A stretch of 64,000 nucleotides of DNA from an uncultured Planctomycetota bacterium (lineage in GTDB: Bacteria > Planctomycetota > Planctomycetia > Isosphaerales > Isosphaeraceae), in NCBI GenBank assembly GCA_963823665.1, contig CAWGMQ010000002.1, forward strand, positions 64,001-128,000. The letters run 5' to 3'. Positions 8,922-52,880 of the stretch are shown here, one piece after another. The notes under the pieces were generated by a model. The model did not search any database and was not told where the DNA came from. It saw nothing but the letters and a program-made list of their open reading frames with translations. Position 1 is the first letter of the stretch; every line of letters starts with the position of its first letter. The position numbers and the translations under genes were made by a program.

Positions 8922-11900
8922 GCAGGAGGCGATTCGCTGTCGACACCACCTTGATCTTGATCGCCAGTCCCATGGGCCGATGATGCGGAAGGACGCAGGA
9001 ACCGGTCAGTGTAGTGCGAGCCCAGGATCAAGTCGCTCTGACACTGCGTGTGGCCCGCTGGAGCCGGGAAAAAGCTGTACAATACCGGCATCAAGTAGCG
9101 TGTCAGGAACAAGGTGCAAAGCATCGCCCCAACCACCACGATGGCCAGCGGCTTCTGTGCCTGTGAGCCGATCGATGTCGCGATCGCCGCGGGAAAGAGC
9201 CCGAGTGCCGCCGTCAGCGAAGTCATCACAACCGGTCGCACGCGCAGCTCGGCGCCGCGCATCACCGACTCGCGCACCGATAGACCCGCACCTCGCAATT
9301 GGTTGAAGTACGAGACCAGCAGCACGCCGTCCTGCACCGCAACCCCGAACACCGAGACGAACCCGACGGCCGCCGAGATCGAGAACGGCGTGCCAGTCAG
9401 CCAGAGCGCCAGCACCCCCCCCATCGACGCCTCCACCACGTTCACCATCACCAGTAACGAGTCCTTCATCGAATTGAACGCGGAGTACAGCAAGCCGACG
9501 ATCAGCGCAATCGAGATCGGGACGATAAAGAGCAAGCGGTAGTTGGCCTCTTCCATCTGCTGGAATTCGCCCGACCAATCGATGTCGTATCCCGGCGGAA
9601 GCTGTGCCCCATACTTGGGATCGGTCACTTTCCGCTGAGCTTCGGCAATGGTCGAGGCCAGGTCGCGGCCCTTGACGCTGAATTTGATCGGGATGTAACG
9701 GCGATTGTTTTCTCGGTAAATGTAGGCCGCACCCGGCTTGTGTGGAATGATGTTGGCCAACTGTCGCAGCGGAATCCGCGCCCCCGGCTTACCGTCCTGC
9801 CCGGGCGTGTCGACCGGAATTCGGCCGATGACTTCTGGATCGTCACGCTTGTCCTTGGGAAGACGAAGGACGATGTCGAAGAGCTTTTCACCTTCAACCA
9901 TCCGCGTGAAAGCGCGCCCCCTACGGCAACCTGCACCACGGCCTCGACATCAGAAACGTTGATGCCGTACCGGGCGCACTCGTGCCGGTCGATCTGAATC
10001 TCGAGGTTCGGCTGACCGACAATATGAAAAAGCCCCGGGTTGAAGATCCCCTTCACGTCGTTCAGGATGTTGATGACTCGCTGCCCCGCCCGCTCGAGGA
10101 CTTGCAGGTCGTTGCCGAACAGCTTGATCGAGTTGGCTCCCTTGACCCCGGAAAGCGCCTCCTCCACGTTGTCTCGGATCAATTGCGAGAAGTTGAAGTT
10201 GACTGACGGGAACACCTTGAACTTCTCCATCAACTCGTCCTGAATCTCCTCCCGGGTGATCTTGCGACTCCACACCGTCCGGCCCAGGAACTTGACCGGC
10301 TTTTCTCGCCAGTCCTCCATGGGCGAAAGTGGGGCGTTGAATTCCAGATTGAAATAACTCGTCACGTCGGTCCCGTCGTCCGGGCGGCCGACGTGTGACA
10401 TCACCCCCTTGATCTCCGGAATCGAGCCAATCACACTACGCAGCCGCGGAGCCATCCGCGCCGCCTCTTGAAGCGTCGTCGTTCGCGGCAAGAGTGCCCG
10501 AATCCAGAGGTTGCCTTCCTCCAGGGGCGGCATGAACTCGCCCCCCAGCTTCGGTATCAGCGTGATCGTGAACACTAGGAGCGACCCCATCGCCGCCAGC
10601 AGCAAATATCGGTGCTTCAACACCCGGTCAAGCATGATCAGATAACGAAGCTTCATGATGCGATCGATGAATGTCTCCTTCTCCTCCTTCTTGTTCTGGA
10701 ACAAGAAAGAGCAGAGTACCGGCGTCAGCGTCACCGCCAGTAAGAGCGCACCGCAGATCGCAAAGGCGTAAGTGTTGGCCATCGGGCCGAAGAGCGCACC
10801 TTCCGGTCCCGTCATCGAGAAAAGCGGTATAAACGCGCACACGATGATCAGCGTCGAGAAAAAGAGGGCGCGTTCGATCTCGTGCGATGCATCGATGATC
10901 CGGTCGATCAAGGGCCGTGTCCGATCGGTATTCTTCGCCGTGATGTGCCGGAAAATGTTCTCGACAATGATCACCGAGCTGTCGACGATGATCCCGAAGT
11001 CAACCGCGCCGATCGAAAGTAGATTGGCCGACTTCCCCTGGATGTGCAGCACCGACACCGAGAATAACAGCGCCAGCGGAATCATGATCGCCACGATTCC
11101 CGCGCTCGAGATGTCGCCCAGGAAGATGAACAGGATCAAGATCACCAGCCCCATGCCAACCACGAGGTTGTGCACAACGTTGTGCTTCGTGACGTTTACC
11201 AGCTCAGTCCTCTGGTTAAAAATCTTGATCCGCATGCCTTTGGGCAAAAGACCGCTCGTGTTCAAGTGCTCGATCTTATCTTTCACCCGCTCCGACGTCG
11301 GAAGCGACTTCTCGTACTTCCGCATCAGCACGATGCCTTCGACCACGTCGTTTTCACCGTTGCGGCCAACTACGCCCAGCCGCGGCTGATAGCCGATCAC
11401 CACCTTGGCGATCTGCTTGACGTACACCGGCATGTTGTCGTGAGTGGTCACCACCACGTCTTGAATGTCTTCGAGTTTCTCGACCTCGATCGCGTAAGCG
11501 TGTTCGGCGACCGCCGGGTCCAGCGAGTCGATCCCTTCGCCCAGATAACCGATCGCCCGCACGTTGTGCGATTGCGGCCCGAGCGGTAAAACATCACCGC
11601 CCACATTGGCGTTCGACTGCGAGATCGCATCGGATACCATCTGCAAGGTCACGTCGTACCGTCTCATCAACTGCGTGTCGAGCAAGATCTGGAATTGCTT
11701 GACCGTCCCGCCGTAACCGGTCACATCGATCACGCCGGGCACCGTCCTTAGCTGCCGTTCGAGCACCCAGTCCTGCACCGCCTTGATCTGATTCAAGGTG
11801 TAGCCATCGCCCTCGAGCACATATCGCACGATCTCGCCGGTCGGGCTCCAGGGTGATAGGCCCGGGTTTACTCCCGGAGGCAGGTTGCTCACCATCCCGA

Positions 11901-12240
11901 TCCGGTTGATCACCTCCTGCCGGGCAGTCCAGTAGTCGGTCCCGTACTCGAATTGGCATTTAATGTCGTTGAGACCCGCCAGCGAGATGCTCCGCAAGTA
12001 CTTCAGACCCGGCATCCCGTTCAAGGCCGTCTCGATCGGAATGCAAATCAATCGCTCCATTTCCTCGGGGCTCGCCCCGGGATTCTGGGTGATCACCTCC
12101 ACGAGCGGCGGCGTCGGATCCGGATACGCCTCGACGTTCAGATTCCGCGCTGAATGAATGCCGAACACGATCAGCCCCACCGTCCCCAGAAGGACAATGA
12201 AGCGATTATGCAGGCTCCACGTAATGAGCGCGCGAACCAT
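8918..12240 (-). CDS. CzcA/CusA-family heavy-metal RND permease; frameshift near 9915
   Basis: LNVEAYPDPTPPLVEVITQ, HME-type TM4 motif AVDFGIIVDSSVIIVEN, GGEFMPPLEEG, C-terminal RVRPVVMTSLTAALG and GSQAQKPLAIVVVG. Confidence 0.92.
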
Positions 12241-18118: not shown

Positions 18119-19531
18119 TCAGAAAACCCGCGAAGCATGGATCCGCGGCAGGCCAGCCTTGGCCACACTCCCTTCCGGCATCGCATCGCGAATGCCACCC
18201 CGAAGCGCATCAATCATGTCTTCCTCCGGATGTCCATCAGCCGGAAAGTCAATCCACTCCCCTCCTCGTCGCTCCCGGCAATAATTCGCAAACGCCTCCT
18301 TCAATCGAATGCACCGCGGATGGATCGTCAGGCAGCCGGCATCCAGAAGCAATTCCATCATGTCCAGCCCGTCCAGCACCGGATGCTGCGGCCATCGCGC
18401 AACGAAACGCGAGCCGAAGACCCGCTCATATTCGCCGTAGGCAACTGGGCCCAGAGACGTCCGGGCCGACGACGCAGGGTCGAGCCTCACCAGGTCGATC
18501 CGGCCCCGGCAAGGCAGCTCATCCGCCTTCGCCTTGATGTCGAGTGCATTCTTGAGGCTCATCACGTCGACGGCGAGGTATTCGCCAAAGACAGTGACCC
18601 GCATCCGCTCGTTCGCCGAATCCCTGCGAACCTGGAAGAACACCGCCGCCGTGTGCCGCGATGTTCCCGCGTCGATCGCGCACCGTACGTGATACGCAGG
18701 GTGGTATTCAGCATCCACCGAAACGTGCCGCGCCGGGTCGAAGTTGGTGAACCACACACCGTCGGTCGTCTCCAGGAATTCCGCGTAGATCTCCTGCCTT
18801 CCCAGCCTCGTGTTCTCGTACAGCGTGACGATCTGAGTGACGAATTCCACCGGCAGATGGGCCTGGTTCGCGTAAGTGGTGTCGGTGGTCTGTACGGTCG
18901 TCGGCTCGGCCAGAATGCGTTTCAGCACGGCCAGCCGCCGCGGCGTGGTGGTGATGAGCGCCTGCGGATTGGCCCCGGCCCGCAGCGCCAGCATCACCAG
19001 CTCCCACATCGATTGAGCTCGCTGCCAGCACGCCAGCTCGTCGGCCCAGATGGTGTCGATGTTCAACCCGCGGGCGCGCTCGGGCTCCTCGCCGCTCAGG
19101 CAGATCGCGCGAGCCCCGTTGGGCCAGCTCACGCGTCGCTTTGAGGGCTCAAACTTGGGCCGCATCCACGGCGGCGCGACGTTGAGCAACCCCGAGGAAC
19201 CTTCGACCAGCACGTCGCGGATGTCGTTGGCGGTCGGGGCGATCAGGCAGCCGACCTTCATGGTGCCTTGTTCAACCCGCCGCTGAATCCACTCCGCTCC
19301 GGCCCGTGTCTTGCCCGCTCCGCGCCCGGCGACATAGCCCCACACCCGCCAGTTGCCCTCGGGCGGCCGCTGGGTTTGTCGCGCCCGCGGGTGCTTGCGG
19401 CACTCTCCCGCCCGCAGGTCGCACGGGCACGATTCTGCGTACCAGTCCCACGGGACGCGGTCGGTCACCTGTACCGGGTCCGGGCCCAAGCGGGCGTCAG
19501 CCCGCTTGACCCGCCATTCGATCTCGTTCAT
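18119..19531 (-). CDS. Phage terminase large subunit-like protein (Terminase_6-type ATPase + RNase H-like nuclease)
   Basis: Walker A GRGAGKT, RARGLNIDTIWADE Walker B, ITTTP coupling motif, TRLGRQEIYAEF, nuclease acidic motifs IDAG and EDMIDAL. Confidence 0.88.
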   Translation of the reverse strand: MNEIEWRVKRADARLGPDPVQVTDRVPWDWYAESCPCDLRAGECRKHPRARQTQRPPEGNWRVWGYVAGRGAGKTRAGAEWIQRRVEQGTMKVGCLIAPTANDIRDVLVEGSSGLLNVAPPWMRPKFEPSKRRVSWPNGARAICLSGEEPERARGLNIDTIWADELACWQRAQSMWELVMLALRAGANPQALITTTPRRLAVLKRILAEPTTVQTTDTTYANQAHLPVEFVTQIVTLYENTRLGRQEIYAEFLETTDGVWFTNFDPARHVSVDAEYHPAYHVRCAIDAGTSRHTAAVFFQVRRDSANERMRVTVFGEYLAVDVMSLKNALDIKAKADELPCRGRIDLVRLDPASSARTSLGPVAYGEYERVFGSRFVARWPQHPVLDGLDMMELLLDAGCLTIHPRCIRLKEAFANYCRERRGGEWIDFPADGHPEEDMIDALRGGIRDAMPEGSVAKAGLPRIHASRVF

Positions 19532-19925
19532 CGAGCTTTTCCTCGATCTGTGTCATGCGCTCTTCCAGGCACGAAAACTTTGACACGGCCAACATGTCCC
19601 TGATGAGGGTCTTGATCGCCCCCAACCGAACTGACTCAGACTCGGCGTCCGCGGCCAGGACAACGAGCTTGGGTACTGCCCACGGCACGCGCTTGACCAT
19701 CATGCCGACTGCCCGATCGAGCATCCGGTGCCGGCACGCCTGCATCGCTTTGCGAACTTCCGGTTCCTTCGCCCACCGATAAACGGTTGGTCTGGGCACG
19801 TTGTTGTCTCGCGCCCATGCGGTGATCGAACGACCTTGCGCAAGTGCAACAGCGAGTTGCGCTTTCGTTCCTCTCTGCGTCTCGTCGCCCATGATAAAAA
19901 TGATAATCGGTGATGAATTTTTCAC
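19497..19925 (-). CDS. HTH protein, probable terminase small subunit (start GTG 19925 or ATG 19892)
   Basis: HTH (ALAQGRSITAWARDNNVPRPTVYRW), helical middle, C-terminal coiled coil; overlaps the terL start by 35 nt. Confidence 0.7.
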   Translation of the reverse strand: MKNSSPIIIFIMGDETQRGTKAQLAVALAQGRSITAWARDNNVPRPTVYRWAKEPEVRKAMQACRHRMLDRAVGMMVKRVPWAVPKLVVLAADAESESVRLGAIKTLIRDMLAVSKFSCLEERMTQIEEKLDERDRMAGQAG

Positions 19926-20192
19926 CGATTTTCCTCTTCGCCCGTCTCACGGTTCTCAGCCCCGGGCAGGCTGGCCGGCACACCCTCGTTCCGAGGGCCA
20001 GGTAAATGATTCTTCGAGATATTTGAGTCGCGCCTCGCTCGCGCCTGACGCTTGGACCATGGCCCGCGCGCCGATCCGCGACTGGAAACATCGCCCCTGG
20101 CCGGATAGGATGGGTGGTCGGACAAAATGACCGATCGCCCCATCACGGGCGCTCACGTCTTGATGTTGACCGGTTTGGAGCAGCTCGCAACA

Positions 20193-21671
20193 ATGTCTCG
20201 CCGCGATTCGAATCATCACAAACCGCCTCGATCGAATCGGCGGCCGAAAACGAATGCCAGGGCCGGCGGCTCGCGCTCTCGCCCGCCGGCACCAGCCGTT
20301 CCCGAGGCCCACTCGAAACAATCCCAAGAACACGACCGCGAGCGTCGCGGTCCCGGGCGTCGTCCCGATCGCGAATCCGGACCGGGAACGCTCGAGCGCG
20401 TTCAGAAAGTGCTGGCACATGCCGGCCTCGGCTCTCGTCGAAGTTGTGAAGAGCTGATCAGACAAGGGCGTGTTGCCATCGACGGGCAGGTCATTCGCGA
20501 GCTCGGCACTCGAGTTGACCCCGATAAAGCACGAATCACCGTTGATGGCGAAGCGATTCGCCGTGAGTCCATGGTGTATTACGCCGTCAACAAGCCCAAG
20601 GGATACGTTTCAACCAACGCCGATCCTGCTGGAAGACCCCGTGTCGTTGATCTCCTCCCGGAGATCCCCGAACGCGTCTACACGGTCGGTCGACTCGACG
20701 AGGAAAGCACCGGGTTGATGATCTTGACCAACGATGGCGAGTTGGCCAATCGGCTGGCTCATCCACGTTACGGTGTCGAGAAAGTGTACCGTGCGCTCAT
20801 CGCGGGTGCCCCTGATCAGGAGGTTCTTGCCAAGCTGACGGCCGGAGTTTGGCTCTCTGACGGCAAGATCCGCGCCAAGCGCGCCCGACTCGTCGGCCGC
20901 CAGGGCCAGGCCCATGTGCTCGAGCTCGTACTGGCCGAAGGAAAAAACCGCGAAATTCGTCGGATGTTGGCCAAGCTCGGGCACAAAGTGATGTCGCTGA
21001 GCCGCATTGCCGTAGGCCCCGTCAGCGGCAAGGGGCTCTCCAGTGGCGAACACCGTTCCCTCTCCCGGCACGAGGTCGATCTGCTTTGGAAGGTGGCTAA
21101 TGGTGCCGACGTATCGTTGCCACGGTTCCTCGATGGTGAATCCCAGCCCCGAGCTCGGGGTGATTCAAGGCGTCATCCCCAGCCCGGCGGCGGCCGTGGC
21201 CAGCGGAATAGACCCGGCTCACCGCAAGGACACCATGGCCAGTTCCGCCGCGAGACCGGCCCAACTCCTGGCTCAAAACAAAGCCGGCCGGCACTGTCAT
21301 CACACTCAACTCAATCTCCGCCTCCTCCGTCACACCGGCCGGATTCCGCGCCCCGAAACACGCGGCCGTCCCATGAACCAGCAGCCCGCAAGCCACCGAA
21401 CCGCGAGCGGTCCGGCGGTGCTCCGCGAACAGACAGGGCGAAGACGCTGAAGCACGCACCGGCAAGTTCCCGGCGCTCGGTAACCCCTGCGCCCATTCGC
21501 CGCATCATCGGCCTGGAGCCCCAGGCGCGACCGCAGCCGAACCCGCAATTCGAGCAAAAGCGCAGTCGCAAACGCCCCCCGCCCAGAACTTACCGCCGGT
21601 CCCCATCGCCGAAGGCGACGAAACAAACATTTCCATCCCCGCCGCCGCGCACTGTCGGTGAAGATGCATGA
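20193..21671 (+). CDS. rRNA pseudouridine synthase (RsuA/RluB family, S4 domain) with long basic disordered tails
   Basis: ERVQKVLAHAGLGSRR (S4), NKPKGY, VGRLDEESTGLMILTNDG, EGKNREIRRM. Confidence 0.92.
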   Translation: MSRRDSNHHKPPRSNRRPKTNARAGGSRSRPPAPAVPEAHSKQSQEHDRERRGPGRRPDRESGPGTLERVQKVLAHAGLGSRRSCEELIRQGRVAIDGQVIRELGTRVDPDKARITVDGEAIRRESMVYYAVNKPKGYVSTNADPAGRPRVVDLLPEIPERVYTVGRLDEESTGLMILTNDGELANRLAHPRYGVEKVYRALIAGAPDQEVLAKLTAGVWLSDGKIRAKRARLVGRQGQAHVLELVLAEGKNREIRRMLAKLGHKVMSLSRIAVGPVSGKGLSSGEHRSLSRHEVDLLWKVANGADVSLPRFLDGESQPRARGDSRRHPQPGGGRGQRNRPGSPQGHHGQFRRETGPTPGSKQSRPALSSHSTQSPPPPSHRPDSAPRNTRPSHEPAARKPPNRERSGGAPRTDRAKTLKHAPASSRRSVTPAPIRRIIGLEPQARPQPNPQFEQKRSRKRPPPRTYRRSPSPKATKQTFPSPPPRTVGEDA

Positions 21672-22528
21672 ATCCCCACTCATGCATATCGAGTCCCACC
21701 GCGACTGATCGCATGATTCGGATTTTGGAGAACGTCGCAATTGCTCGCGATACCTTTCGGCTGCGCCTGGATGACCCCGCGCTAGCCCAAGCGATCCGGC
21801 CCGGCCAGTTTGTCATGATCCGTCCGGGACTCGTGGATGCATCCGACCCGTTGCTGGGCAGGCCGCTCGCCCTCTACGACGTGGCTTGCTCCCGATCAGG
21901 CACGCCGGAATCGTTCGACGTCGTCTATCTGGTCGTAGGCCGTGGCACCGCCTCGCTTGCGCTCCGACGGCCCGGTGAGCAACTCGCCGTGTGGGGACCG
22001 CTGGGAAACGGGTTTGGCCCGCCGCCCGGCGGCCCTGTGTTATTCGTCGCCGGCGGTATCGGCCAGACGCCCTTTCTTGCCCTGGGCCGGTCCTGGCTGC
22101 GAGCGCGGGGCCCGGCGTCGTCGATCACTTTGCTTTACGGCGTGCGATCCGCGGCGTTCCTGGCGGGTGTCGAAGACTTCCGGCAAGCCGGTATCGAGGT
22201 CGAGCTCGCAACCGACGACGGGACGGCTGGCCATCACGGCTTCGTCACCGAGTTGCTGGCCCGTCGTCTTGCGGCTGGAGAGCGGCCGGCGAAGGTCGTC
22301 GGCTGCGGGCCGCCCGCGATGCTTGCTGCCCTGGCCAGGCTCGTTTCGAGTTATCGCATCCCCTGCGACGTCTCGCTCGAAAATCACATGGCCTGCGGCT
22401 TCGGCGCATGTTTCAGTTGCGTAGCCCCCATACGTAAAGATGATGGCGTACTCGACCTTCGACGCGTCTGCGTCGAGGGACCCGTTGTGCCGGCAGAACG
22501 CGTTGACTGGGCAGCCATGACCCACTGA
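21668..22528 (+). CDS. pyrK: Dihydroorotate dehydrogenase electron transfer subunit
   Basis: PGQFVMI, GPLGNGF, AGGIG, CGPPAM, MACGFGACFSC...RVCVEGP 2Fe-2S motif. Confidence 0.88.
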   Translation: MNPHSCISSPTATDRMIRILENVAIARDTFRLRLDDPALAQAIRPGQFVMIRPGLVDASDPLLGRPLALYDVACSRSGTPESFDVVYLVVGRGTASLALRRPGEQLAVWGPLGNGFGPPPGGPVLFVAGGIGQTPFLALGRSWLRARGPASSITLLYGVRSAAFLAGVEDFRQAGIEVELATDDGTAGHHGFVTELLARRLAAGERPAKVVGCGPPAMLAALARLVSSYRIPCDVSLENHMACGFGACFSCVAPIRKDDGVLDLRRVCVEGPVVPAERVDWAAMTH

Positions 22529-22586
22529 ATCGCCGCAGAGACGCCGACGTTGATCCGAAGCCGGGGAATAATACCCGCGCTCACAA

Positions 22587-23357
22587 TCAACCCTGCGACT
22601 CGGCCTTGATCAGATCGCGAAGCCTGGCTGCTAGCTCGTAATCTTCCCGCACCACCGCTTCCTCGAGTTGCTCACGCAGCGTTTTCCGTACGAGGAATCT
22701 CTCACGGACGTCCCGCTCGACCTTGCCGAGTCGCTCCACGAGCTTGGGCACGGGCGACTCGTCCGGGTCGTTCTCTTCCCACCAGACGCGTTGATGCGTG
22801 TTCAAACGATCGATACCCTCACGCAGCGCATCGACCGCCTCTTCCGGTCGTTTGCGTTCCAGCGCCATGGCAAAGCCGGCCTCCGCGCGGTGAAACAGAA
22901 CAATCGCCCGACACTGCTCGTGCGAGCCGATGTATTCTTCATCGATACCATGCCGCAATACGAAATCCATGAGCCCAAGGGTATGTTCGGCGTCCTGGAT
23001 CACCCGGTCATGCTTTCCGAGAAACCGCCAGGCAACCCGGCGATGATAGAACTGGATGAACTCTCGGTCCAGCTCGGCGCATTGTTCTGTCGACATCGAC
23101 CAGCGCACCACCTTGCTGCCGAGAGCATGCGCCCGACCGCTCGTGAGATGACGCAGATAGTCGAGATAGGTAACAAACCCATGCGGGCGCGCGCCGTCGG
23201 GTCTCCCGGTCACCTCGAGTTGAAGCACTCCAAGCTCGATGCGAACCTGCAAGACCTTCCGCCCGTCACCCGCCCGCCCCTCGCGAGCCACGTGTTCGCC
23301 CTTGGCTGGTTCATAAGGCCAGCTCCGGAGCAGCTCATCCAGGTCCGGTCGCATCAA
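22587..23357 (-). CDS. Conserved protein with C-terminal UvrB/UvrC motif
   Basis: LQVRIELGVLQLEVTGRPDG; C-terminal LEEAVVREDYELAARLRD. Confidence 0.8.
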   Translation of the reverse strand: MMRPDLDELLRSWPYEPAKGEHVAREGRAGDGRKVLQVRIELGVLQLEVTGRPDGARPHGFVTYLDYLRHLTSGRAHALGSKVVRWSMSTEQCAELDREFIQFYHRRVAWRFLGKHDRVIQDAEHTLGLMDFVLRHGIDEEYIGSHEQCRAIVLFHRAEAGFAMALERKRPEEAVDALREGIDRLNTHQRVWWEENDPDESPVPKLVERLGKVERDVRERFLVRKTLREQLEEAVVREDYELAARLRDLIKAESQG

Positions 23358-23392
23358 CTACTCCCTCGCGATCAAAGCGATTAAAGTCATTC

Positions 23393-23421
23393 TTGCAAAC
23401 CGACTGTACCTTCGTCATGAT
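23393..23421 (+). promoter_or_regulatory. Putative sigma70 promoter of tRNA-Lys
   Basis: TTGCAA-17 nt-CATGAT, 27 nt upstream of the tRNA. Confidence 0.4.
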
Positions 23422-23448
23422 GGATTTCCCTATCGAGCGAGCGTTCCC

Positions 23449-23521
<73 letters not shown>

Positions 23522-24109
23522 TTTTCGACAAGAAGTGCAGGTGGTGCGTCCGAGCATCGAGGGTGATCCTTCGCCGATCGCACAGCTTCGTTGATCATTG
23601 CCGACTTCTGGAAATCCGAGATCGATCCACCCTTGGCCCATGATGCCACGACCGCGGATGGCCCACGCCCCTCCGCGGATTGATCAACAACGCGCAAAAG
23701 CAAAGGGGGCTCGGACTTCCGTCGCGTTTCAACGTTCTTCGACGATGGATCATTCTGATAGCAAAATGATAGCATATTATAAGCGATCTGCTCTTCCCGC
23801 TCGCGGTTCTCAGCTCGAGTCCCGAGTTCGCGTCTCAGGCTGTTTGGCCAGTCGCAAATTGACGCGATCCCAAGACCGAATTCCGAGCACCACCACGAAC
23901 AGTCGCTCAATCTTTTGAGAAAGCCGTGCGCAAGCGTGGCCCCAAGCGCCGCGGTGAGCCGCGCTTGGAGGGCACAGAACCGACCGGCGGTGCGGACAGA
24001 GCGTGATCTTGCGTTCATGATCGCCCCGGAGGGCTATTCGAGAGTTGCTGTCAACAACCGGATCGCCGATCCGTCAATCGACCGGACCGGCGAAGTCGGT
24101 GTTGCGCAA

Positions 24110-24283
24110 TCACTTGAGAGCATCAAGCTTCGAATGAGCCGACGCCGCGACCTGATTGACGCCAAACGCGGCAAGGAATGCCGTGAGCGCAGGTGTGACC
24201 TGGTCTGTCTTGCCCGCAGCAACGACATACAGCAGGTAGAGCCCCGCGACGACCGCGGGCCAGTAGCGCACCAGAGTTGACAT
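24110..24283 (-). CDS. 57-aa two-TM small membrane protein (holin-like); not in the ORF track
   Basis: MSTLVRYWPAVVAGLYLLYVVAAGKTDQVTPALTAFLAAFGVNQVAASAHSKLDALK; AGGAG RBS overlaps the stop of the upstream C1 peptidase. Confidence 0.7.
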   Translation of the reverse strand: MSTLVRYWPAVVAGLYLLYVVAAGKTDQVTPALTAFLAAFGVNQVAASAHSKLDALK

Positions 24284-24294
24284 TCAGGTGTCTC

Positions 24295-25053
24295 CTATTC
24301 GACAGTACGAATTGTCCAGAAATCGCTCGTCAGCGCACTTGTCATGTACGCATAAGGCAAATAGAAATACCCCCCATCCCCCCAGCTCGACCCCCACGAG
24401 TTTCGCACGGTAAACGTCGACGACGCGTCGTCGTAGCCGACAGCCATCACCGCATGGCCGCCGATCGCACGCTCAAACCAGTTCGGCATCGGCACATGCC
24501 CCGTTCGCGCGACGTAATCCGACTCGAAGCTCGCATAGACAGTGAAGCCGAAAACAAAGGGAAAGCCCGCCGCAAGGCAGCCGCGGAAATCGCTCAGATC
24601 CTGATTGACAGTCTCGTAAACGAGCGCCAGATGCTTGGAAGCATCGTCGTAGCACGCCGCCGGCGGCTGGACCGTGAACTGGCTGACGTCGTACGGCCAT
24701 TCCGTCTCAGGGCAATCACCCCACTGGGCTACACTCTTGATGCCGTCCCGGATCTGTGCACCTGAATCGGACCCGACGGTCCCTTCGATCGCGCGCTCAT
24801 TATAATAAATGAATAAGCGAGATGGTGTTGAAACCGGCAGCTTCTGGCGGGCCGCGTCGAACTCGAGTGCCGCTGCAATCGCATTCGCCGTGCAGCTTCC
24901 AAGTTCTCCCTGGTCATAAACCGGTGGACATTGTGCTCGCAGATCAACGGCCGGCGGAAGTCCGGCAGCCGCTTTAGCATTCTGCGCGAGTTGGAACTTT
25001 CGGTCTCGTTGATCCGGCAAGTCGCGGACCCACCCATACCTTCTTGTCGCCAT
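24295..25053 (-). CDS. Papain-like C1 family cysteine peptidase, no signal peptide
   Basis: VDLR...DQGELGSCTANA (Q, catalytic C), GGHAVMAVGYDD (H), VRNSWGSSWG (N); TAATG coupling to the upstream gene. Confidence 0.93.
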   Translation of the reverse strand: MATRRYGWVRDLPDQRDRKFQLAQNAKAAAGLPPAVDLRAQCPPVYDQGELGSCTANAIAAALEFDAARQKLPVSTPSRLFIYYNERAIEGTVGSDSGAQIRDGIKSVAQWGDCPETEWPYDVSQFTVQPPAACYDDASKHLALVYETVNQDLSDFRGCLAAGFPFVFGFTVYASFESDYVARTGHVPMPNWFERAIGGHAVMAVGYDDASSTFTVRNSWGSSWGDGGYFYLPYAYMTSALTSDFWTIRTVE

Positions 25054-25361
25054 TATGGATAACTCCTGACGCATTGGATGCATTCCAAGGTGCTTACTTT
25101 CGCCCCGCAGCGCAGACCACACCGCGCACAACCGCATCCTCCGGCTTCGGTTGACCGGAACATGCAGTCGCGTACGGCGCGTGCCAGGGCTATGGACTCC
25201 GCCGCCGTCGGTCCGGGACGCGGCGGCTCCTTCGCCAATCGCTGCACCAGTGCCGAATACTCGGCACGAACTAGAGCATTGGGATGCTCGAGGCAGAGAT
25301 AGCGGTATCGTTCCACCCCGGTGCGGACGATGACCAGCTCGAGTGCTTCAACAAGTGTCAA
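25053..25361 (-). CDS. Small Cys-rich hypothetical protein
   Basis: C-terminal CMFRS...CGCARC...ECIQC; stop overlaps the peptidase ATG; GGCTTG/CCATTG start context is weak. Confidence 0.6.
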   Translation of the reverse strand: MTLVEALELVIVRTGVERYRYLCLEHPNALVRAEYSALVQRLAKEPPRPGPTAAESIALARAVRDCMFRSTEAGGCGCARCGLRCGAKVSTLECIQCVRSYP

Positions 25362-25390
25362 TGGAGAGGCGCAGCGCCGCTGAGCAAGCC

Positions 25391-25726
25391 TTACTTCGCT
25401 TCTCCGCCCTCGCCGGCGAAGGGCATTTCCCCGCCGTGCTGCTCCCCGGGCTTTTGATCGGGGGCCAGCCGACGACGGTTGAGCTCGGCGTCAACCCGTG
25501 CGAGTAGCTCGGCGTGCGCACGCATTTTTCCGCGAAAGATGTAGAGGGCGACCGCGCTGCCGAACATGGAGACGACGATCGAGACCATCCATTTCACGTC
25601 GTCGAATTGCAAGCCGACGACAGCCGTGGTCGCCGACGCCAGTGCAAGAAAATGCACCGCCCCGTACTTTTGGGATAACAACATGAGCGTCCCTATACCA
25701 CAATTCCCGATGTCGTTTTGGTCCAC
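25391..25726 (-). CDS. Small membrane protein with 2 hydrophobic segments and a charged C-tail (holin-like)
   Basis: GAVHFLALASATTAVVGL and WMVSIVVSMFGSAVALYIF, then RGKMR...LNRRR; lies directly after the portal gene. Confidence 0.55.
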   Translation of the reverse strand: MDQNDIGNCGIGTLMLLSQKYGAVHFLALASATTAVVGLQFDDVKWMVSIVVSMFGSAVALYIFRGKMRAHAELLARVDAELNRRRLAPDQKPGEQHGGEMPFAGEGGEAK

Positions 25727-25762
25727 AGTGTCGATCAGTCCCTGTCCCGGATCCGCTTCGAT

Positions 25763-27712
25763 CTACTCGACCGACGGAATCATGTTTCCGATCATCGTGC
25801 TCCCAGACTCTCCGGTTGGATCTTCGCCACCGGCTTGCTCGGGTGAGCCTCCCCCGGTAAAGGCCTCGGCCTGGCTTGAGATGCCTCCCGGCGCCCATTC
25901 ACTGGGCTGACCCGATGCAATCGACTTGGTCGCCAGCATCGAGTCGATCTCCTGGTCGAGAGCAACGTATTCCTCGTCCGACAGTCCTAGGAGAAGCTGG
26001 CGAATGATCGACTTGTACCCGAGACCTTCAGTCTGCGGCGCCGTTCCTGCCGACTTGAATGACTGCTGCATCCGCGTGAGGCCGTCAATGAGCTCGGAAG
26101 CGCTGAATAGCTCAAATCGCGCGGGATAGATCACCCTGATCGCCTCTCTCTCCGCCGACGTCACGGGGCGGCCGCGAAGAACCAGAAGCGCGAATTCGGC
26201 GATGAATCGTTCCGCGCGCGCCAGCGACTTCGCTATCGACCCGAGCAGCTTGTGCCCCGCCGCCGCGTCGAGCTGCTTGGAGATGCCCGACTGGGCCACG
26301 GTCCACCCGCCGTGACCCGCGCCGGAACCGGCCGCCACACCCGCCGGCTTGATGAGACACGCGCGTCGGTCCTTCATGTCGATGAGATCTTGCTTGTTCG
26401 TACGGAGCGAGGCGGCCGGGTCCTTCGGTGGGGATGTGTACTCCCAGCCTTCGTAGGCACCGCTCTCCGGGCTCTTTTTCTTCGGAAGAACGTAGCCGGG
26501 GCCAATCGACAGAGTGTTATCAGCCTTGCAATAATCCTCGGGCCCGGACAGGAGCGGATGAGCCTGCAAGGTGTCGGATAGGATCAGTTCGCTGTCCCTG
26601 TTGTAGTACTCTCGCTGCAGCTCCGCGATTGCTTCATACCGCGATTTCCCGATTGTCGGCGTGCGGTGCTTTTTCAAATCGATGAGACGAACGATCGGCA
26701 CCCGGCCGAACGAATGCGGAACCCGATCGATCACCTCGTCGCCGCTGAAGTTGTAGAGCACCGACTCGTCCGATTTCCAGTGCCGGTAGCGGACGTAGTT
26801 CTTCCGCCAGGCTTCGCCTATCTTACCGGGGTCATCCACGTCGACTACGGTCCCGTTGCTGTCGACATCGATCCGCGCCGACGGGTCTTGATATTCGCGG
26901 ACCAGGCATTCGACGTAGCGACCGGAATTATCGCACCGCCACCAGACCATATTCTGTGGCAGGATGTACGAGGCCACGCATTTGTCCAGACCGAGCCGAA
27001 GTTCGTCCGCTCTTGTCTCGATGCGTTCGCCGGGCGGGGCCATCGGGTGGTCCAGACAAATGTCGATGCAGCCGAGCACCAGCAAAAGAGGCGCGACGGT
27101 CTCCCGCATCCAGTCATCGATCGGCGTTCCCCGGCCGTCGACGTCTTTCCACCATTCCGCGAGATCAGCCGGTCCCGCGCGGGTGACCTCTTGGTCATAG
27201 ACCTTGCTCAGGTGAATCTCGACCGCCTCGGCCACGAATTCGGGCACCGGCGTCCGGGCTCGCCGCAGCTCGTAGTCATCATCCTGCGCAGTCGACGCTG
27301 GATCTGCCCCCAGCATGCCGGGATACGGCCCGAAACCGATGCTCTGGCCTTCACCGCTCACCGCGGCCAGGCCGCCGGCAAACCCGCCATAAACAACCGG
27401 GAATTGTTGCGGGTCCGGATACTCTCGCCGATGTCGGAATAAATTGCGACATGGCAGCCCCTTGCGATCGGGACCGTATACCGCGTTTCGATATCGGTCG
27501 CCCCCTTCGTAAGAGTCGAGCAGCCAGCGCCAGCGGATCTGATGCTCGAGAAAGTCGACATGCCGCCGCTGCACGACGGTCTTCCCATCCGTCTCCGCTT
27601 CGCCGGCAACGATTTTTGCCCGCGACTGATGTGTCTCCGCACTTGTGATCGACCCGTCCCGACCTGTGCCCAGGCCGGCAGACGGTGAGGTCCGCTGCAG
27701 GAAGTTCAACAT
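25763..27712 (-). CDS. Phage portal protein-like (DUF4055-type)
   Basis: Motif order matches this portal class as I recall it: LFRHRRE, DYELRRAR, WKDVDGRGTPID, ICLDHP, TRADE, PQNMVWWR, HSFGRVPIV, IAELQREYYNRDSE, SGISKQLD. Confidence 0.75.
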   Translation of the reverse strand: MLNFLQRTSPSAGLGTGRDGSITSAETHQSRAKIVAGEAETDGKTVVQRRHVDFLEHQIRWRWLLDSYEGGDRYRNAVYGPDRKGLPCRNLFRHRREYPDPQQFPVVYGGFAGGLAAVSGEGQSIGFGPYPGMLGADPASTAQDDDYELRRARTPVPEFVAEAVEIHLSKVYDQEVTRAGPADLAEWWKDVDGRGTPIDDWMRETVAPLLLVLGCIDICLDHPMAPPGERIETRADELRLGLDKCVASYILPQNMVWWRCDNSGRYVECLVREYQDPSARIDVDSNGTVVDVDDPGKIGEAWRKNYVRYRHWKSDESVLYNFSGDEVIDRVPHSFGRVPIVRLIDLKKHRTPTIGKSRYEAIAELQREYYNRDSELILSDTLQAHPLLSGPEDYCKADNTLSIGPGYVLPKKKSPESGAYEGWEYTSPPKDPAASLRTNKQDLIDMKDRRACLIKPAGVAAGSGAGHGGWTVAQSGISKQLDAAAGHKLLGSIAKSLARAERFIAEFALLVLRGRPVTSAEREAIRVIYPARFELFSASELIDGLTRMQQSFKSAGTAPQTEGLGYKSIIRQLLLGLSDEEYVALDQEIDSMLATKSIASGQPSEWAPGGISSQAEAFTGGGSPEQAGGEDPTGESGSTMIGNMIPSVE

Positions 27713-27794
27713 GATGATTAATAGTGAGTGAGATGCACCCCGCGCAACCTGTCACCGGGTACGTCCCCGATTCGGGCTGTCTGCGGATCGGTGC

Positions 27795-28202
27795 TTATCG
27801 TTGGTGGTTGGCAGTCGCAAGTTGTGGTTTAACGGCCGGAGTCGGTGGATCCGGGAACCTCGCCAGCTCCGCGAGCAACCCGTCGAGGCGATCGAGCACC
27901 GCAGTCGGATCCCGCACGGCTCGCAAATTGTCCAGCTCCGCGATGGCACGCCTGAGCCATCGCGCCGTGATATGTTCGTCTTTGTCCGGCCTTCGCTCGA
28001 AGTAACCCGATTCGACGAGCCCGATTAATCGCCTCGCGATGGCCGCCGCCCGTAACGGTGCGGACCCAGCTTTGATGTGGGGAGGACGGATGGCTGTCAT
28101 GTCTTGCTCGTGTAAGCGCCTCAATGTGTGAGTCATCCTCCATGACACTCCCGCGCACTTCGCGGACACCTCTTGGCCGGTTTCGATCGCGAGGGCAATC
28201 AC
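27795..28202 (-). CDS. Hypothetical helical protein; start uncertain
   Basis: Amphipathic helical ORF (ARRLIGLVESGYF...RWLRRAIAELDNL) co-directional with and upstream of the portal gene. Confidence 0.4.
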   Translation of the reverse strand: MIALAIETGQEVSAKCAGVSWRMTHTLRRLHEQDMTAIRPPHIKAGSAPLRAAAIARRLIGLVESGYFERRPDKDEHITARWLRRAIAELDNLRAVRDPTAVLDRLDGLLAELARFPDPPTPAVKPQLATANHQR

Positions 28203-29553: not shown

Positions 29554-31900
29554 TCAAGCGCCTCAGGCCCCATTCCCCCAGCAAGCACACAATGGCGACC
29601 AGAAAATACAGGGGCTGATGCCAGAGCGGAGACGTCCAAGGCTCGGTGATCGGTGCGCTGCGCGAGGAGAGACTCGCTACGAATGAGGCAAGTCGATTGC
29701 CATCCACGACCTCGCCGCCTGTTTTTGCCGCAATCGTTCTCAGGTATTCTTGGTCAGGCTCGAGGCGGGCAAACTCGTCGGCAGCCGGCTGAGCCGCCCA
29801 GCCGGCTGCCTTCTCGCCTAGGGCGCTGCCGTCCGGCGCGGTCGCGGCGGCGACGATGTTGTAGGCACCCGGCTCTCGAGGAACATAAGTCGTCGCGTAA
29901 GCACCGGCCTCACGCAGGTCCGGCTCGCCGTCGAGTGTGAGTGTTTCACCCCCGGGTAGACGAACGCGAAAGGCGACCTTGGCATTCTCCAGCGGACGAT
30001 ATTCCGCATCGCGCACTCGGGCAGTGAGGCGAAGCGCCGGTGTCTCCGAGTCCGTCCTGGGACGCACGGTCACTTCAACGCGGCCTGGCACGTCGCCGAC
30101 CAGCCAGCGGACGGTCTGCCGCCATGAGCGATCGAAGTCGTCCTCCACCTGGTTCTCGCGGTACATTCCCCACCGCCACAAGTCGCCGATCAAGAGCGCC
30201 GCCACATGCCCCTTTCCAAACGACTGCGCCACGAGAGCCGGTGCCTTTGCCCCCGCTACTAAGTCCTGAACCTCCGAGAGCACCACGGCCCCAGGCTTCA
30301 CTTCGCCCGACCTGCTCAGCGTTTGGAACTCGACCATTCCGGCCAGCCGCTTGTTCTCTTCGTCTTCGGTCTTGCGTACCCGCACCCAGGGCTGTAGCCA
30401 GCCTTCTCGCGTCAGCACCAGGCGATACTTGCCGTCATCCTTCGGCACCACAGGCCGGCTCAGATAGACCGGCAGCAGCTCACCGATGGGCGTCTTGTCA
30501 TACCTGCCCTCGACAAAAGAATCCGGGCCGCCGAGCATCAATAACCCACCCCCGCGCTGGCTCACGAAATTCCTCAAGAGCGCCTGCTGGTCCGGGCTGA
30601 AAAAAGATGACCTCGAGATCGTCGATAATCACCGCGTGATACTTGTACAGCTCGTCAGCAGCCTTCGGAAAGCCGTCTCTCAGGTCCACTTCGTTCGTCC
30701 CTAACCGGATCAGCACCGGCTGGTCTTGCCGCTCGGCCGAATCGGGATCGGAGTGATCGAAACCGTCGAACAGAGGGCTCGTCGATCGCGCCCGCGCGCT
30801 GCGGAAGTCGAATTTCGGCTGGCGACTTGGCAATTCGCAGCAGCCCGATCAGCTCAACCTCTTTGTCCTCGTCGATCGCCCTGCGCAGGAACTTGAATTC
30901 CCAGTTGGGACGCCCGCTCACATAAAGCACCCGGTACGGCCCGCCCCCCTGATCAACCACGACCAGCCGGCTGTTATTGGCAAGAGTCTGCTCGCTCGTG
31001 CTCTGGAGAGTCGCCGGCTCCATCGTCTTTCTTCTCGTCGGCAACCGGTAACGCTTTGACGTGATAGAAGCTCACTCCTTTGCGCTCGGGTCGGAACTGA
31101 AATCGAAAGCCCAGCGGCTTGCCATCGCCGGTTGCTTTCAATACCTGGCGCTCGACTTGTTTGCCCCCCTCGTCGGCCAGAACAGCCACGATCTGCTCTC
31201 CGTTCAAACCGCTTGTCGCTACGTCCGCCCGGATAACAACCGGCGCCGACTCGAAATTCGTCTGATTGATCGAGACATGAGTGACGCCCACATCGCGACT
31301 GACCGATCCCGATGGAGGAATAACCGGATAGATCGGCCGTGACTGCGATAGATCCAGATCCTTCAGATCGGTGCGATTGCCGTCGCTGAAGAGCAGAATC
31401 CCGGCCAGCGGCAAGCCCCGGAACCGCTTCGAGAGCGCCTCGATCGATGTAGTCAGTGCGCTGCCCGTGCCGTCAAACGTCAACCCTTCAAATCCATCCA
31501 CGGCCCGGAGGTGCGTGTCGAACACATAGCTGCGGACGTCATAATCCTGGCCCAGTCGCGTTTTCCAGGCCGGTTCCCCCTGCAGCAGGCCGAGCATCCA
31601 ATCTCCATTCGTCTGGGTCGTCTTGCCGTCGCGAATCTGCAGACTCTGGCTGTTGTCGGCCAGAATCACGAAGGCATTGGCCCCCCGGCGCGGCCTTGAA
31701 CCGGTGAGCAGCGGCTCGAGCAAGCAGATCGCCAGTGCCGCGAAACCCAGAGCTTTCAGCACTCCGGCCGCAATTCTCACCGATCGTTTCGCCTCGGCCC
31801 GCGCGTAGCTCCAGAGAAGCGCCGCCACGGCCAGACCCACGAGCCCAACCGTCACGGCCATCCATTGCGGTGAGCCCCAGATCAGGGAAGGCAACGTCAT
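29540..31900 (-). CDS. Membrane protein with VWA-like and class-I glutamine-amidotransferase-like domains; several frameshifts (~30590, ~30820, ~31010)
   Basis: N-terminal TMs, ILADNSQS, LLFSDG, RVLYVSGRPNWEFKFLRRA, GGGLLMLGGPDSF, C-terminal GEWGLRRLNGLA. Confidence 0.8.
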
Positions 31901-34900
31901 TTACCGCTCCCCAGTCGCTCGTAATAACGCCGCACGCCCTCGGCGAACTGGGGCGGAACAGGGTCGCGATCGATCGGCACCAGCGCATCCGGCGACTCGC
32001 GCCGCCGCACTTCCTCGGCAATCCGCTTGCGAAGCTCATTCATCGGTTCCGCGACAAGGTTCTTCAGCTTCGTCCAGTCGGGCTCTTTGGAGTGGCGTTT
32101 GTACTCATCTCGTTCTCCCCGGACACGGTCGCGAAGGCGAGCGGCCTCGGCACGCATCTCCGGGTTGTCCAGCAGCTCTTCCACATCGCGCATTCGATCT
32201 GTCCATTGACGGAAGCCCTCGCCGCGGATCGGTCCTCCTGCCCAGGTCGTCCGCCGCTCCACGGTCATCACCTCCGCCCGGGCCGCCGGCCTGTGTATCC
32301 CGGCCCCGTTGTCACCTTGCTGCCCCCGCTCGCCATCCGCCGGATTGCCACCCCGAAGACGACGCGGCCCTTGCGCTTGCCCTTGCCCGCCCTGCTGCTC
32401 GCCTCGACCTCCAGCTTGTCCGCCACCCTGCTGCTCTTGACCTCCTTGCTGCCCCGGCTGCTCTTGTTGTCCTTGACCCTCGCCGCGGCCCTGCTGCTGT
32501 CCCTGCTGGCCTTGCTGTTCTCCACGACCCTGTCGCCCGTCTTGCCCGCCTTGCCGCTCACCGGGCTGCGGCTGACCCTGTCGCCCGTCTTGCCTGCCTT
32601 GCTGCTCACCGGGCTGCGGCTGGCCCTGTTGCCCATCTTGCCTACGTTGCGGCTCGCCCGGTTGCGGCTGACCCTGTTGCCCGTCTTGCCCGCCTTGCTG
32701 CTCACCGGGTTGCGGCTGACCCTGTTCCTGGCGCCTTCCCGCTTGTCCCGGGCGTTGGCCCTGTCTCGCGCGGGCTCCGATTCGCCGGCTCAGTTCCCGT
32801 GGCCTGCGCAATCTCGCGATCGAGCTGGTCGCCGAGGTCCTCAAGCTCGCGCTGGGCCCGCTTGAGCGCCTCTGTTTCATCGCCCAGCACGCTCCGCGCC
32901 GCTCGCTCGACCCCTTCACGCAATTGCTCCAGGCCTTGCCCCGCGTGCCGCGACGCCTTCGCGGCATCCTCACTGACTGCCCAGGTCGACCAGTTGCTGC
33001 GAGACCTTGAGCGCGTCTGGGAATCTTCTGCTCACCCGCCTTCCGGGCCGTGTCGTAAAGCTCCTTCGCCAGCAGCGGCTCGCTCTCCTCCGCATCCTCG
33101 AACGGTGCGACGCATTTGCTCGAGCAGTTGATCGAGCCGTTTTTCTTGTTGGTCAAGCCCTTCGCGCACCTGCTTTCGTTCGCCCGAATCGCGCAGCGAA
33201 TGCTGCTCACTCTGGTTGCTGGCTTCAAGCTGTTCGCTGAGCTTTTGCTGATCCTCGCTGAGCCGACGCGCCTGGTTGCGCATGTCGGTCGCTTCCTCGG
33301 TGAACCGATTGGCAGCCTTCTTCCGCAGCTCTTCACGCAGGTCGTTTAACTGGCGGCCCGCCCGTGTGCCCTCGGTCAGGGCCTGCCCGAGCCGGCCTTG
33401 CTCGAGCGCGTCGGAGGCCTGCCGCACATGCTCGCGGCCCTGCTCGATCTGCTCGCGCGCATCGGCCATACGCTCGCGGTTTTCCTCCTGTTCCATCCGC
33501 TCTCTGCAGCTCGTCCGTATCGCGCAGGATCTGCTGCTGCTGATCCCTCAGCCGCTTGAGCTGCCGATCAATCTCCTGTCGCGCCTGCTCCGTCTTGGCC
33601 GCCTCGAGCGCCGACTGCAGTTCCTTCAGCCGTTCGTTGACGTCAGCCTGGCGCTGGGCCAGCTCGCGCAGCCGATTGAGCACCTGACGCGTCTCGCGCT
33701 GCTCGCGCTCTCTCTGCGACAGGTTCTCTGCGGCTCGTGCCGAGCGCTGCTCTTCGTACCGGTTCTCATCGTTCGTGAGCTCGAGCTGCTGAAGCTGCCG
33801 CTGTGCCAGTCTGCCCCCGGAGCTCCGGCTCCCTGTTGCTGCCGCCGCGAGTTATTGTCGAATCACCTGGAATTCTCGGGCGCGCAGCTTGAGCAACGCC
33901 TGGTAGGCAGCCTGCTCGGCAGCGAGGGCCGGCTGCAAGCGCCGGGATCGACGACTTCTCGGCAACGTCCGTCAAGCGCTTCTCGGCATCCTTCATCAAC
34001 CGCGTGGCCTGCTCCAGGCTCGCTTTCGATCGCCGCATCTTGCAGCCGCTCCCCGAGCCCGTCGGCCTTCTCGATCGCCGATTGCTGAGCCTCTTTGAGC
34101 ACCTTGCCGTCCTCGGCGAGCTTGTCGGTCGGCTTGCCGCCGGTCTCGCGTCGCACCAGCTTCCAGGTGCCGTTGATGATCTCCTTCTGAAGCTCGGCCA
34201 GCTGGTCGGAATCGCGGGCGTTGTTCTGCCCGCCCTCCTGTTCCTCGTTCTGGGCTGATCCGCCCGGCGGTTGCTCACCCTGCCGGAAGATCTCCTCGAA
34301 GTGCCGCACCTCGGCAAAGTACATGTCGCCCAGACGTGCGCCGCGCCTGCCCGTCGGGCCCCACGTCCTCGCCCCAGAAGAAATAGGTGACAAGCTGATC
34401 GGGAATCGCTTGCAGGGCCTCGAAGTCCAGCAAATGCTCGGCGCGGACCTGCCGTTTGCCGGCACTGGAAGAATTGAGGACGATCTCACGAGATTCGCCC
34501 CCGGCGATGCTGTACGACAGCCCATGACGAGTTACGCCGAAGTCATCCTCGACGTCGGCCTTGAGCTTGAGCTCTTCGACCGGCGACACCCGAACATCAT
34601 GCGCCGGCTGAGTCGTCTTCACAACCGGCGGATGGTTCCGCGTGACATTCACCACGATCTCGCTCGCCAGCTTGTTGGTGCGCCCATCCTTGTCAACCAG
34701 CTCGACTTTGAACCGCCTGGGATCCGCCAGCGTCATGGTCGTCCGGTAAACATGACGCCCATCCGTGGTACGCCTTTAGCTCGATCGACTTCTTCTCGGC
34801 GTCCACCAGCCGCGCAGTGGCAACATCCTTGTTGAGCCGGCATAAAAGCGTCAGCTCGGTGCCTTCGACGGCCGTCACATGCCGGATATCCTCAACCGTC

Positions 34901-52864: not shown

Positions 52865-52880
52865 GCCGCGCGGCCCTCGA

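Follow-up and report, generated by a model that had tools for sequence, protein, structure and literature searches.

Phage structural genes can persist in bacterial chromosomes in several guises. PBSX-like defective prophages and tailocins are conserved chromosomal clusters of such genes without an integrase, while satellites of the phage-inducible chromosomal island (PICI) type, like selfish terS alleles, use a small terminase subunit (TerS) of their own to redirect the capsids of another element. The gene transfer agent (GTA) of Bartonella relies on run-off replication and keeps a phage-derived primase-helicase near its structural genes. RcGTA is described in PMC11841831 as a head-tail cluster found throughout its host lineage, encoded at several loci including small satellite loci, vertically inherited and free of an integrase; the same paper gives BaGTA of Bartonella as a GTA outside the RcGTA type, and leaves the frequency of GTAs outside the Alphaproteobacteria open because homology cannot separate GTAs from prophage remains. 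Here we analyzed a 64,000-nucleotide stretch, the window (G000:C2:64001-128000), from an uncultured member of the Isosphaeraceae (Planctomycetota) whose genome, G000, comprises 16.5 Mb in 12 contigs, and which encodes TerS, a large terminase subunit (TerL) and a portal protein. These genes probably, on balance, belong to a domesticated, GTA-like head-tail system that is dispersed within the genus and served by a replacement terminase, a system known here from its genes alone.

In the following, the cluster is the head-tail gene set found across the family, TerL_A is the cluster's own TerL, and TerS_B and TerL_B are the terminase subunits of the cassette type found in the window. Labels such as G001 denote the genomes of relatives (family set n = 121, 53 genera, 47 high-quality genomes), and G029, from the same genus as G000, is the reference for all pairwise values of dS and of the ratio of nonsynonymous to synonymous divergence (dN/dS). 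Judged from gene content and trees, the system combines five genomic hallmarks of GTAs, namely phage head-tail genes, vertical inheritance, purifying selection, no integrase or attachment (att) site, and a distribution over several loci. It resembles RcGTA in layout and inheritance, and in that the phage TerLs matching the ATPase of TerL_B include those listed as nearest to the RcGTA TerL. It differs in phylum and phage ancestor, with an SU10-type capsid and a phrog_145 portal, and in its TerS with a helix-turn-helix (HTH), its multicopy chimeric terminase and the RNA leader placed on both capsid and terminase genes. By family assignment, capsid and portal lie outside the families of RcGTA; a relationship, by way of phages akin to both, is seen for the TerL_B ATPase alone. 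With the Bartonella GTA it shares an independent origin and, in 12 relatives, a primase-helicase near the structural genes; G000, G029 and many further genomes with the cluster do not have this primase, and the likeness is one of description. Like a PICI, the cassette brings an HTH-type TerS by which the capsids of another element could be redirected. The cassettes differ in that integrase, primase and att sites are missing, a complete TerL is often present, and the helper would be the host-kept cluster rather than a phage. In G000, all 11 TerS loci, viewed with 1.5-kb flanks, have host or insertion sequence (IS) genes as neighbours, and a satellite-like context was seen only in G022. A conserved chromosomal structural cluster without an integrase also recalls PBSX and the tailocins, but in the present cluster conservation is higher for head and packaging genes than for the tail, and we identified no sheath gene. 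An active temperate prophage does not fit G000, in which we found no integrase near the cluster, no att repeats and no contiguous head-tail genome.

The portal was found in 94 of the 121 family genomes, including 37/47 high-quality ones, and in 43/53 genera, mostly as a single copy. In relatives the cluster runs from an HTH gene, a peptidase-like gene and small membrane open reading frames (ORFs; these in part of the family) through a small ORF, TerL_A, the portal, a scaffold (phrog_206) and the major capsid protein (phrog_1328; Pfam SU10_MCP, E 2e-40) to head-tail and tail candidates, and this order is constant in the clusters mapped. Flanking genes are shared as well, with pentapeptide, sigma and M32 peptidase genes downstream in G001, G093 and G031, and PFK-EgtD in G118, G111 and G015. 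The capsid was detected in 79 of 98 sampled family genomes, two of them through a small inserted domain only, which leaves 77, and had no strong match in 302 other genomes of the class, where the 20 weak matches (best E 6e-10) were nearly all to the inserted domain. A beta-rich insertion of ~80 aa at capsid residues ~59-140 (L142:16706-17878) occurs also in very large planctomycete proteins and in a tail-fibre family; the structure model of the capsid (pLDDT 42) was too poor for use. The identities of the head and packaging genes are firm, and those of the tail genes are leads only: the tube candidate falls near Phage_tube_2 clusters (0.91; family on 14% of members) and the hub candidate near YqbQ clusters (0.95; 22%), and NCBIfam gave no match for TerL, the portal, the capsid or the tail candidates. 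In genera g50 and g3 the terminase, portal and capsid are kept and the tail-hub candidate was not found, which may mean tailless DNA-filled particles or a divergent tail. In nine canonical clusters a conserved helical-core ORF without an HTH precedes TerL_A; by its position and one DUF5681 match at E 0.13 it is a candidate that would fit a GTA-type TerS, and profile comparison with TerS_B revealed no homology. The group g27/g53/g7/g26/g40 has a conserved HTH-like ORF of ~85 aa directly before TerL_A (L064, L067, L074, L079, L080, L086). Among IMG/VR sequences, pieces of the cluster occur only on contigs of 4-38 kb, one near a serine recombinase, and these contigs show neither free phages nor their absence; a direct search there found no close TerL_B.

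In G000, the scaffold gene, together with the capsid and tail genes that the original prediction had proposed to seek outside the window, was located on a separate contig at C8:1,998,600-2,028,300. The loci of the system are spread over C2, C4 and C8, and in G029 the capsid and portal lie ~390 kb apart. IS elements flank and enter the C8 cluster. At its 3' end, behind IS elements and before dxs, lies a broken TerS-TerL_B copy (G000:C8:2031926-2032554).

For the window itself, a single packaging module split by core genes had been proposed. Coordinates, profile matches and the open reading frames of TerS, TerL and portal agree with the description of three intact-looking genes on one strand, and rluB, pyrK, a UVR-motif gene and tRNA-Lys do sit between the terminase pair and the portal. 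It was also correct that the window lacks capsid, tail, replication and integrase genes, since a Pfam scan of 41 window ORFs (15 + 26) detected no family of capsid, tail or replication proteins, and the 20 matches of G000 to the tyrosine integrase family PF00589 all lie on contigs other than that of the window. The split itself did not stand up to comparison with relatives. The ancestral host order is aguA-rluB-pyrK-UVR, within a host block of aguB-aguA, rluB, pyrK and the UVR gene, and G061, G037 and G003 have nothing inserted at the TerS-TerL site, their gap from aguA to the rluB match measuring 320-514 bp compared to ~2.3 kb in G000. TerS, TerL and portal are absent from these positions in all eight relative loci checked, the aguA-rluB gap of G035 and G036 holds an unrelated insert, and the layout of the window recurs only in G029. 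The empty sites and the restriction of the layout to G000 and G029 indicate independent insertions of the cassette and of the portal island in the genus ancestor. The genes are thus real and intact, yet stem from two separate insertions, and their closeness (~6 kb) may be due to chance. The empty sites rule out one contiguous motor locus invaded later by core genes, and an island integrated at the tRNA with an att repeat was rejected because no tRNA-Lys repeat longer than 12 bp exists in the window.

The terminase of the window differs from that of the cluster. TerL_B contains GRGAGKT at aa 68 and WADE at aa 161, which we take to be the Walker A and Walker B motifs, and acidic motifs at aa 284 and 435, presumably of the nuclease type. 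Its structure model (pLDDT 59, modest) matches solved large terminases, with D6E as the best (E 3.5e-11), and a sequence search of the PDB returned nothing but T4 gp17 at E 0.15. Between aa 46 and 262, phage TerLs match it at 35-47% identity, among them R5C, Tank, Wilde and Sansa, which PMC7947584 (Table 1) places nearest to the RcGTA TerL. None of the best 30 of 118 phage matches reaches past residue 286. Its nuclease part (aa 254-469), in turn, matches TerL_A at 36-47% in 34/34 genomes, while the N-terminal half has no significant match to TerL_A in any. TerL_B is thus a chimera of an ATPase half like those of the phages nearest to RcGTA and a nuclease half like that of TerL_A. An ordinary-looking prophage head module in G115:C1 (L381:2573-11555) has a TerL with an RcGTA-related ATPase, possibly the donor type of TerL_B.

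G000 carries two intact TerL_B genes (76% identical; the second on C4) and a broken one, together with 10-11 copies of TerS_B, three of which are followed by TerL_B. Across the family TerS_B occurs in 38/121 genomes, with up to 27 matches per genome, and TerL_B in 34/121. The N-terminal half of TerL_A was found in 82/121 genomes and was not found in G000 or G029, and no other candidate TerL was found beside TerL_B in G000. TerL_B is present in 12 of the 13 portal-positive genomes without TerL_A, compared to 14 of the 81 with it (three matches weaker than 1e-10 were dropped; kin are non-independent and some genomes are incomplete). TerL_A was lost in g1+g13, g18, g35 and single members of g2, g11, g15, g37 and g38, whose congeners keep it, and these losses fall on several separate branches according to the portal and rpoB trees and the genus labels. 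In G062 TerL_B takes the place of TerL_A directly before the portal, and one IMG/VR contig also has TerL_B immediately ahead of the portal. Taken together, the TerL_B cassette appears to have replaced the cluster's own TerL. Similarity between cassettes extends from ~95 nt upstream of terS to the terL stop codon; a transposon or retro-element with defined ends was rejected, as the cassettes show no terminal repeats and no conserved 3' end. In G038 (L264-L269) the motif occurs in tandem pairs spaced by 360-480 bp, and cassettes with internal deletions join the terS start to late parts of terL. A satellite-like locus in G022:C1 (L380:4778-14353) combines HTH genes, a TerL_B-type terminase, a serine recombinase and an integrase, and none of the cluster's head genes occurs within 19 kb.

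The 5' edge of the cassette is marked by an RNA motif, which is well supported as a separate new structure. A 4-bp hairpin with a YUCGA loop is followed by a CGG/CCG stem, then by a C/AGAA internal loop and a 5-bp stem, and a 5-bp pseudoknot completes the fold. Among 27 copies, chosen with a pattern that favours the inner stem, 96% of cells pair and seven pairs change on both sides; none of 500 shuffles equals this, and slid controls reach at most 46%. Without the inner-stem condition 59/69 cores pair fully, and the pseudoknot, which played no part in the selection, pairs perfectly in 67/78 distinct copies compared to 23.7 (maximum 34) with tails swapped. The exact pattern occurs in 29/121 genomes and the reversed control in none. 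Single-sequence folding gave no support (z -2.0, +1.0 and 0.0), as expected for a pseudoknot, and Rfam 15 gave no match at E<=1 in six motif-bearing loci. A covariance model places the motif directly before the capsid gene in 12/12 cluster loci of the G000 clade and in 0/26 loci of other clades; these pre-capsid matches score 43 bits in G029 and a weak 31 bits in G000 (contig C8), and the search of the whole G000 genome returned two matches, both before TerS-TerL_B. A loose form of the motif was met in IMG/VR, where 80 of at least 121 loci were examined; 70 fit the pattern, five have the inner stem and one precedes the cluster's capsid family. Within the cluster, a second copy precedes a gene for 149 aa that belongs to no known family (L059:16309-16381, L164:15322-15394). 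As a leader, the motif could regulate capsid and terminase jointly; it may also be a riboswitch, an element of antitermination or a ribozyme. Among the literature matches listed (titles and abstract openings), we found neither a planctomycete GTA nor such a pseudoknot RNA; subscription papers and supplementary RNA-motif tables lay outside this scope and could hold the motif, and a passage of PMC13092639 mentions prophage genes only.

Inheritance was compared in 43 genomes with near-full rpoB, portal and capsid genes, excluding second copies and genomes that miss any of these. The portal and rpoB trees have 18/40 splits in common, 15/23 supported portal splits agree, and the Mantel rho of 0.51 exceeds the permutation maximum of 0.21. 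All 12 multi-member genera form clades in the portal tree, G000 and G029 group near G035 as in rpoB, and the tree of the TerL_A nuclease recovers the g2+g48+G000-clade grouping of rpoB. The portal is largely vertical at the genus and mid-depth levels, with weaker deep nodes and a weaker capsid tree. Its dN/dS of 0.088 (dS 0.64) compares with 0.10-0.28 (dS 0.54-0.68) for host neighbours; the capsid has 0.175 and the tube candidate 0.119, and the values of the two terminase genes are in Table 1. Since phage genes also show low dN/dS, purifying selection alone is compatible with a prophage. Vertical inheritance and purifying selection, as anticipated by the original prediction, therefore apply to the portal, which is family-wide with an rpoB-like tree and low dN/dS; the patchy, multicopy TerS and TerL are not its vertically inherited partner.

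We envisage that the Isosphaeraceae keep an anciently domesticated tailed-phage head-tail cluster that would act as a GTA, with a few cells building capsids, packaging chromosomal DNA by the headful mechanism and lysing. In the genus of G000, the scaffold, capsid and tail genes would have stayed at C8:1.998-2.028 Mb, the portal would have come to lie beside tRNA-Lys, and the original terminase would be gone. The mobile TerS-TerL_B cassette would supply the motor, its nuclease half resembling the lost TerL_A and its ATPase half derived from the headful group nearest to RcGTA, and the common pseudoknot leader would tie terminase and capsid expression together across loci. Production of particles, random packaging, docking of TerL_B on the portal, a regulatory role of the RNA, and lysis by the peptidase and a small membrane ORF would all be parts of this scheme. 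More tentatively, this could be the first GTA of the Planctomycetota, present throughout the Isosphaeraceae, whose motor has been taken over repeatedly by a mobile, self-amplifying chimeric terminase cassette with an RcGTA-type ATPase, and in which the dispersed genes for capsid and terminase are coupled by a new class of pseudoknotted RNA, regulatory or self-cleaving.

Several observations weigh against a domesticated GTA-like system. The window's TerS_B keeps its N-terminal HTH, the loss of which is a proposed mark of GTA-type TerS, and the RcGTA TerS has none according to PMC6854486; TerL_B occurs also in five genomes without a detected portal. The portal is missing from 27/121 genomes, 10 of them high-quality, and the tail-hub candidate is found in 68/121 genomes, which makes the head module the better-kept part. 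There are five supported conflicts between portal and rpoB, including G017 and G098, and the capsid tree has six, with a rho of 0.27 that stays below the permutation maximum of 0.29. No PF00589 match lies near the cluster in G000, G093, G001 or G118 (serine recombinases were not searched genome-wide), but G029 has one 27 kb from it. A P4/D5-type primase-helicase lies ~20-50 kb away on the portal's contig in 12 relatives, and in G093 a sigma-70 gene and a D5-type primase are downstream of the cluster. The portal family also contains many clusters at <50% identity (193 matches at E<=1e-30), and these, together with degenerate integrase-bearing copies, indicate that related mobile elements still circulate. 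One such second element, at G029:C18:390000-424000 (L049, L375, L376), has a portal (63%), a TerL_B-type terminase, a tyrosine integrase, sigma-70 genes and a resolvase. Finally, the G000 capsid gene shows three frame switches that restore the frame overall, more than the background would lead one to expect in one gene. We suspect that assembly error is likely behind them: frame switches are as frequent in the cluster (0.36/kb) as in host and island genes (0.39/kb), rpoB of G000 is also split, and the capsid gene of G029 is whole. The contigs aligned to the capsid gene do not settle the matter because they are short and mostly from relatives.

These points bear on three other explanations. It is unlikely, though compatible with a GTA-derived cluster, that the host keeps the cluster while the RNA-TerS-TerL_B cassette is selfish, and that its HTH-bearing TerS initiates packaging on its own sequence or close by, whereby cassettes ride in particles, multiply and make TerL_A redundant. 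Counts that reach 27 for TerS matches and 32 for copies of the motif within a genome speak for it, as do the many TerS-only, truncated and internally deleted copies with a common 5' edge, the nesting of copies from the distant genus g2 (G007, G011) among those of the G000 clade, and the TerL_B of G022 that adjoins an integrase and a resolvase without head genes. The TerL_B dS of 0.285, compared to 0.54-0.68 for the neighbours, points the same way, but rpoB (0.35) and the capsid (0.39) have low dS as well. Moreover, the cassettes show neither terminal repeats nor a conserved 3' end nor a recombinase, the copy in the window has not moved since G000 and G029 diverged, and the same RNA before the capsid gene suggests regulation rather than a pac site.

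Slightly less probable again is an old, integrase-less prophage that uses its linked primase and sigma factor to replicate in place and packages its own DNA along with the flanks, or else yields killing particles of the PBSX kind, with G000 holding its decaying, scattered remains. Part of the family indeed has linked primase and sigma-70 genes, entire genera, g50 and g3 among them, lack tail genes, and the IS elements in the C8 cluster and the capsid frameshifts would suit decay. However, one copy sits at a conserved site across many genera, the relocated portal and the island genes equal host genes in both constraint and dS, retention favours head and packaging genes over the tail (94 vs 68 of 121), the reverse of a killing particle, and neither G000 nor G029 has a linked primase. 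That TerS-TerL_B and the portal are unrelated insertions in a permissive region, with a TerL_B that does not serve the window's portal, seems improbable. The independent insertion sites, the second intact TerL_B on C4 and the abundance of cassettes in the G000 clade would agree with such a coincidence, but TerL_B is the only type of candidate TerL that we found in G000, its nuclease half shares homology with TerL_A, and the capsid gene has the same RNA leader.

The features of the system in the window are collected in Table 1; the papain-like peptidase, the two small ORFs of the portal island and the RNA leader had been overlooked in the original prediction. For TerS_B, the ATG at 19892 fits homologues better than the GTG at 19925, and the hairpin ahead of it may act in translational control. 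A homologue of the island peptidase (82%) lies near a portal in an IMG/VR contig, and the peptidase may function in lysis or maturation. The 135-aa ORF is weakly constrained, and its membership in the island is doubtful. Elsewhere in the window, an IS-type DDE transposase is split over two ORFs (56225-57948; transposase at 57376), and genes of RND efflux and vWA/MoxR clusters are in pieces (9114-12240, 30974-36600, 44989-53000), most likely through assembly indels.

Table 1. Coordinates of the terminase cassette, the portal island and bordering features (window positions; dN/dS relative to G029).
Feature	Position	Strand	Evidence
RNA leader, structured	19928..20003	-	covariance-model match 62 bits; covariation; no Rfam match at E<=1
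Hairpin between RNA motif and terS start codon	19906..19929	-	similar hairpin by eye in other copies
TerS_B, small terminase, N-terminal HTH	19497..19892	-	phrog_2538 E 9e-9; dN/dS 0.43
TerL_B, large terminase, chimeric	18119..19531	-	Pfam Terminase_6N E 3e-25; phrog_2 E 2e-24; dN/dS 0.135
tRNA-Lys(CTT), host gene bordering portal island	23449..23521	+	no duplicated 3' end >12 bp in window
Papain-like C1 cysteine peptidase, portal island	24295..25053	-	PF00112 E 6e-12; phrog_16701; dN/dS 0.066
102-aa Cys-rich ORF, no known family, also in G029	25053..25361	-	dN/dS 0.23
111-aa ORF with hydrophobic stretches	25391..25726	-	holin-like by size and position only; dN/dS 0.22
Portal protein, sole copy in G000, orthologue of the family-wide cluster's portal	25763..27712	-	phrog_145 E 1e-31; dN/dS 0.088
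135-aa ORF upstream of portal	27795..28202	-	among compared loci only in G029; dN/dS 0.50

The cluster and its replacement terminase offer a concrete GTA candidate in a new phylum, present in near-complete genomes. The Isosphaeraceae include cultured members, which, together with these genomes, makes the candidate directly testable. The family also provides natural experiments on the randomness of packaging, in that it contains TerS with and without an HTH and two ATPase types on one nuclease. If the system is a working GTA, it may provide a gene-delivery route for a genetically difficult group.

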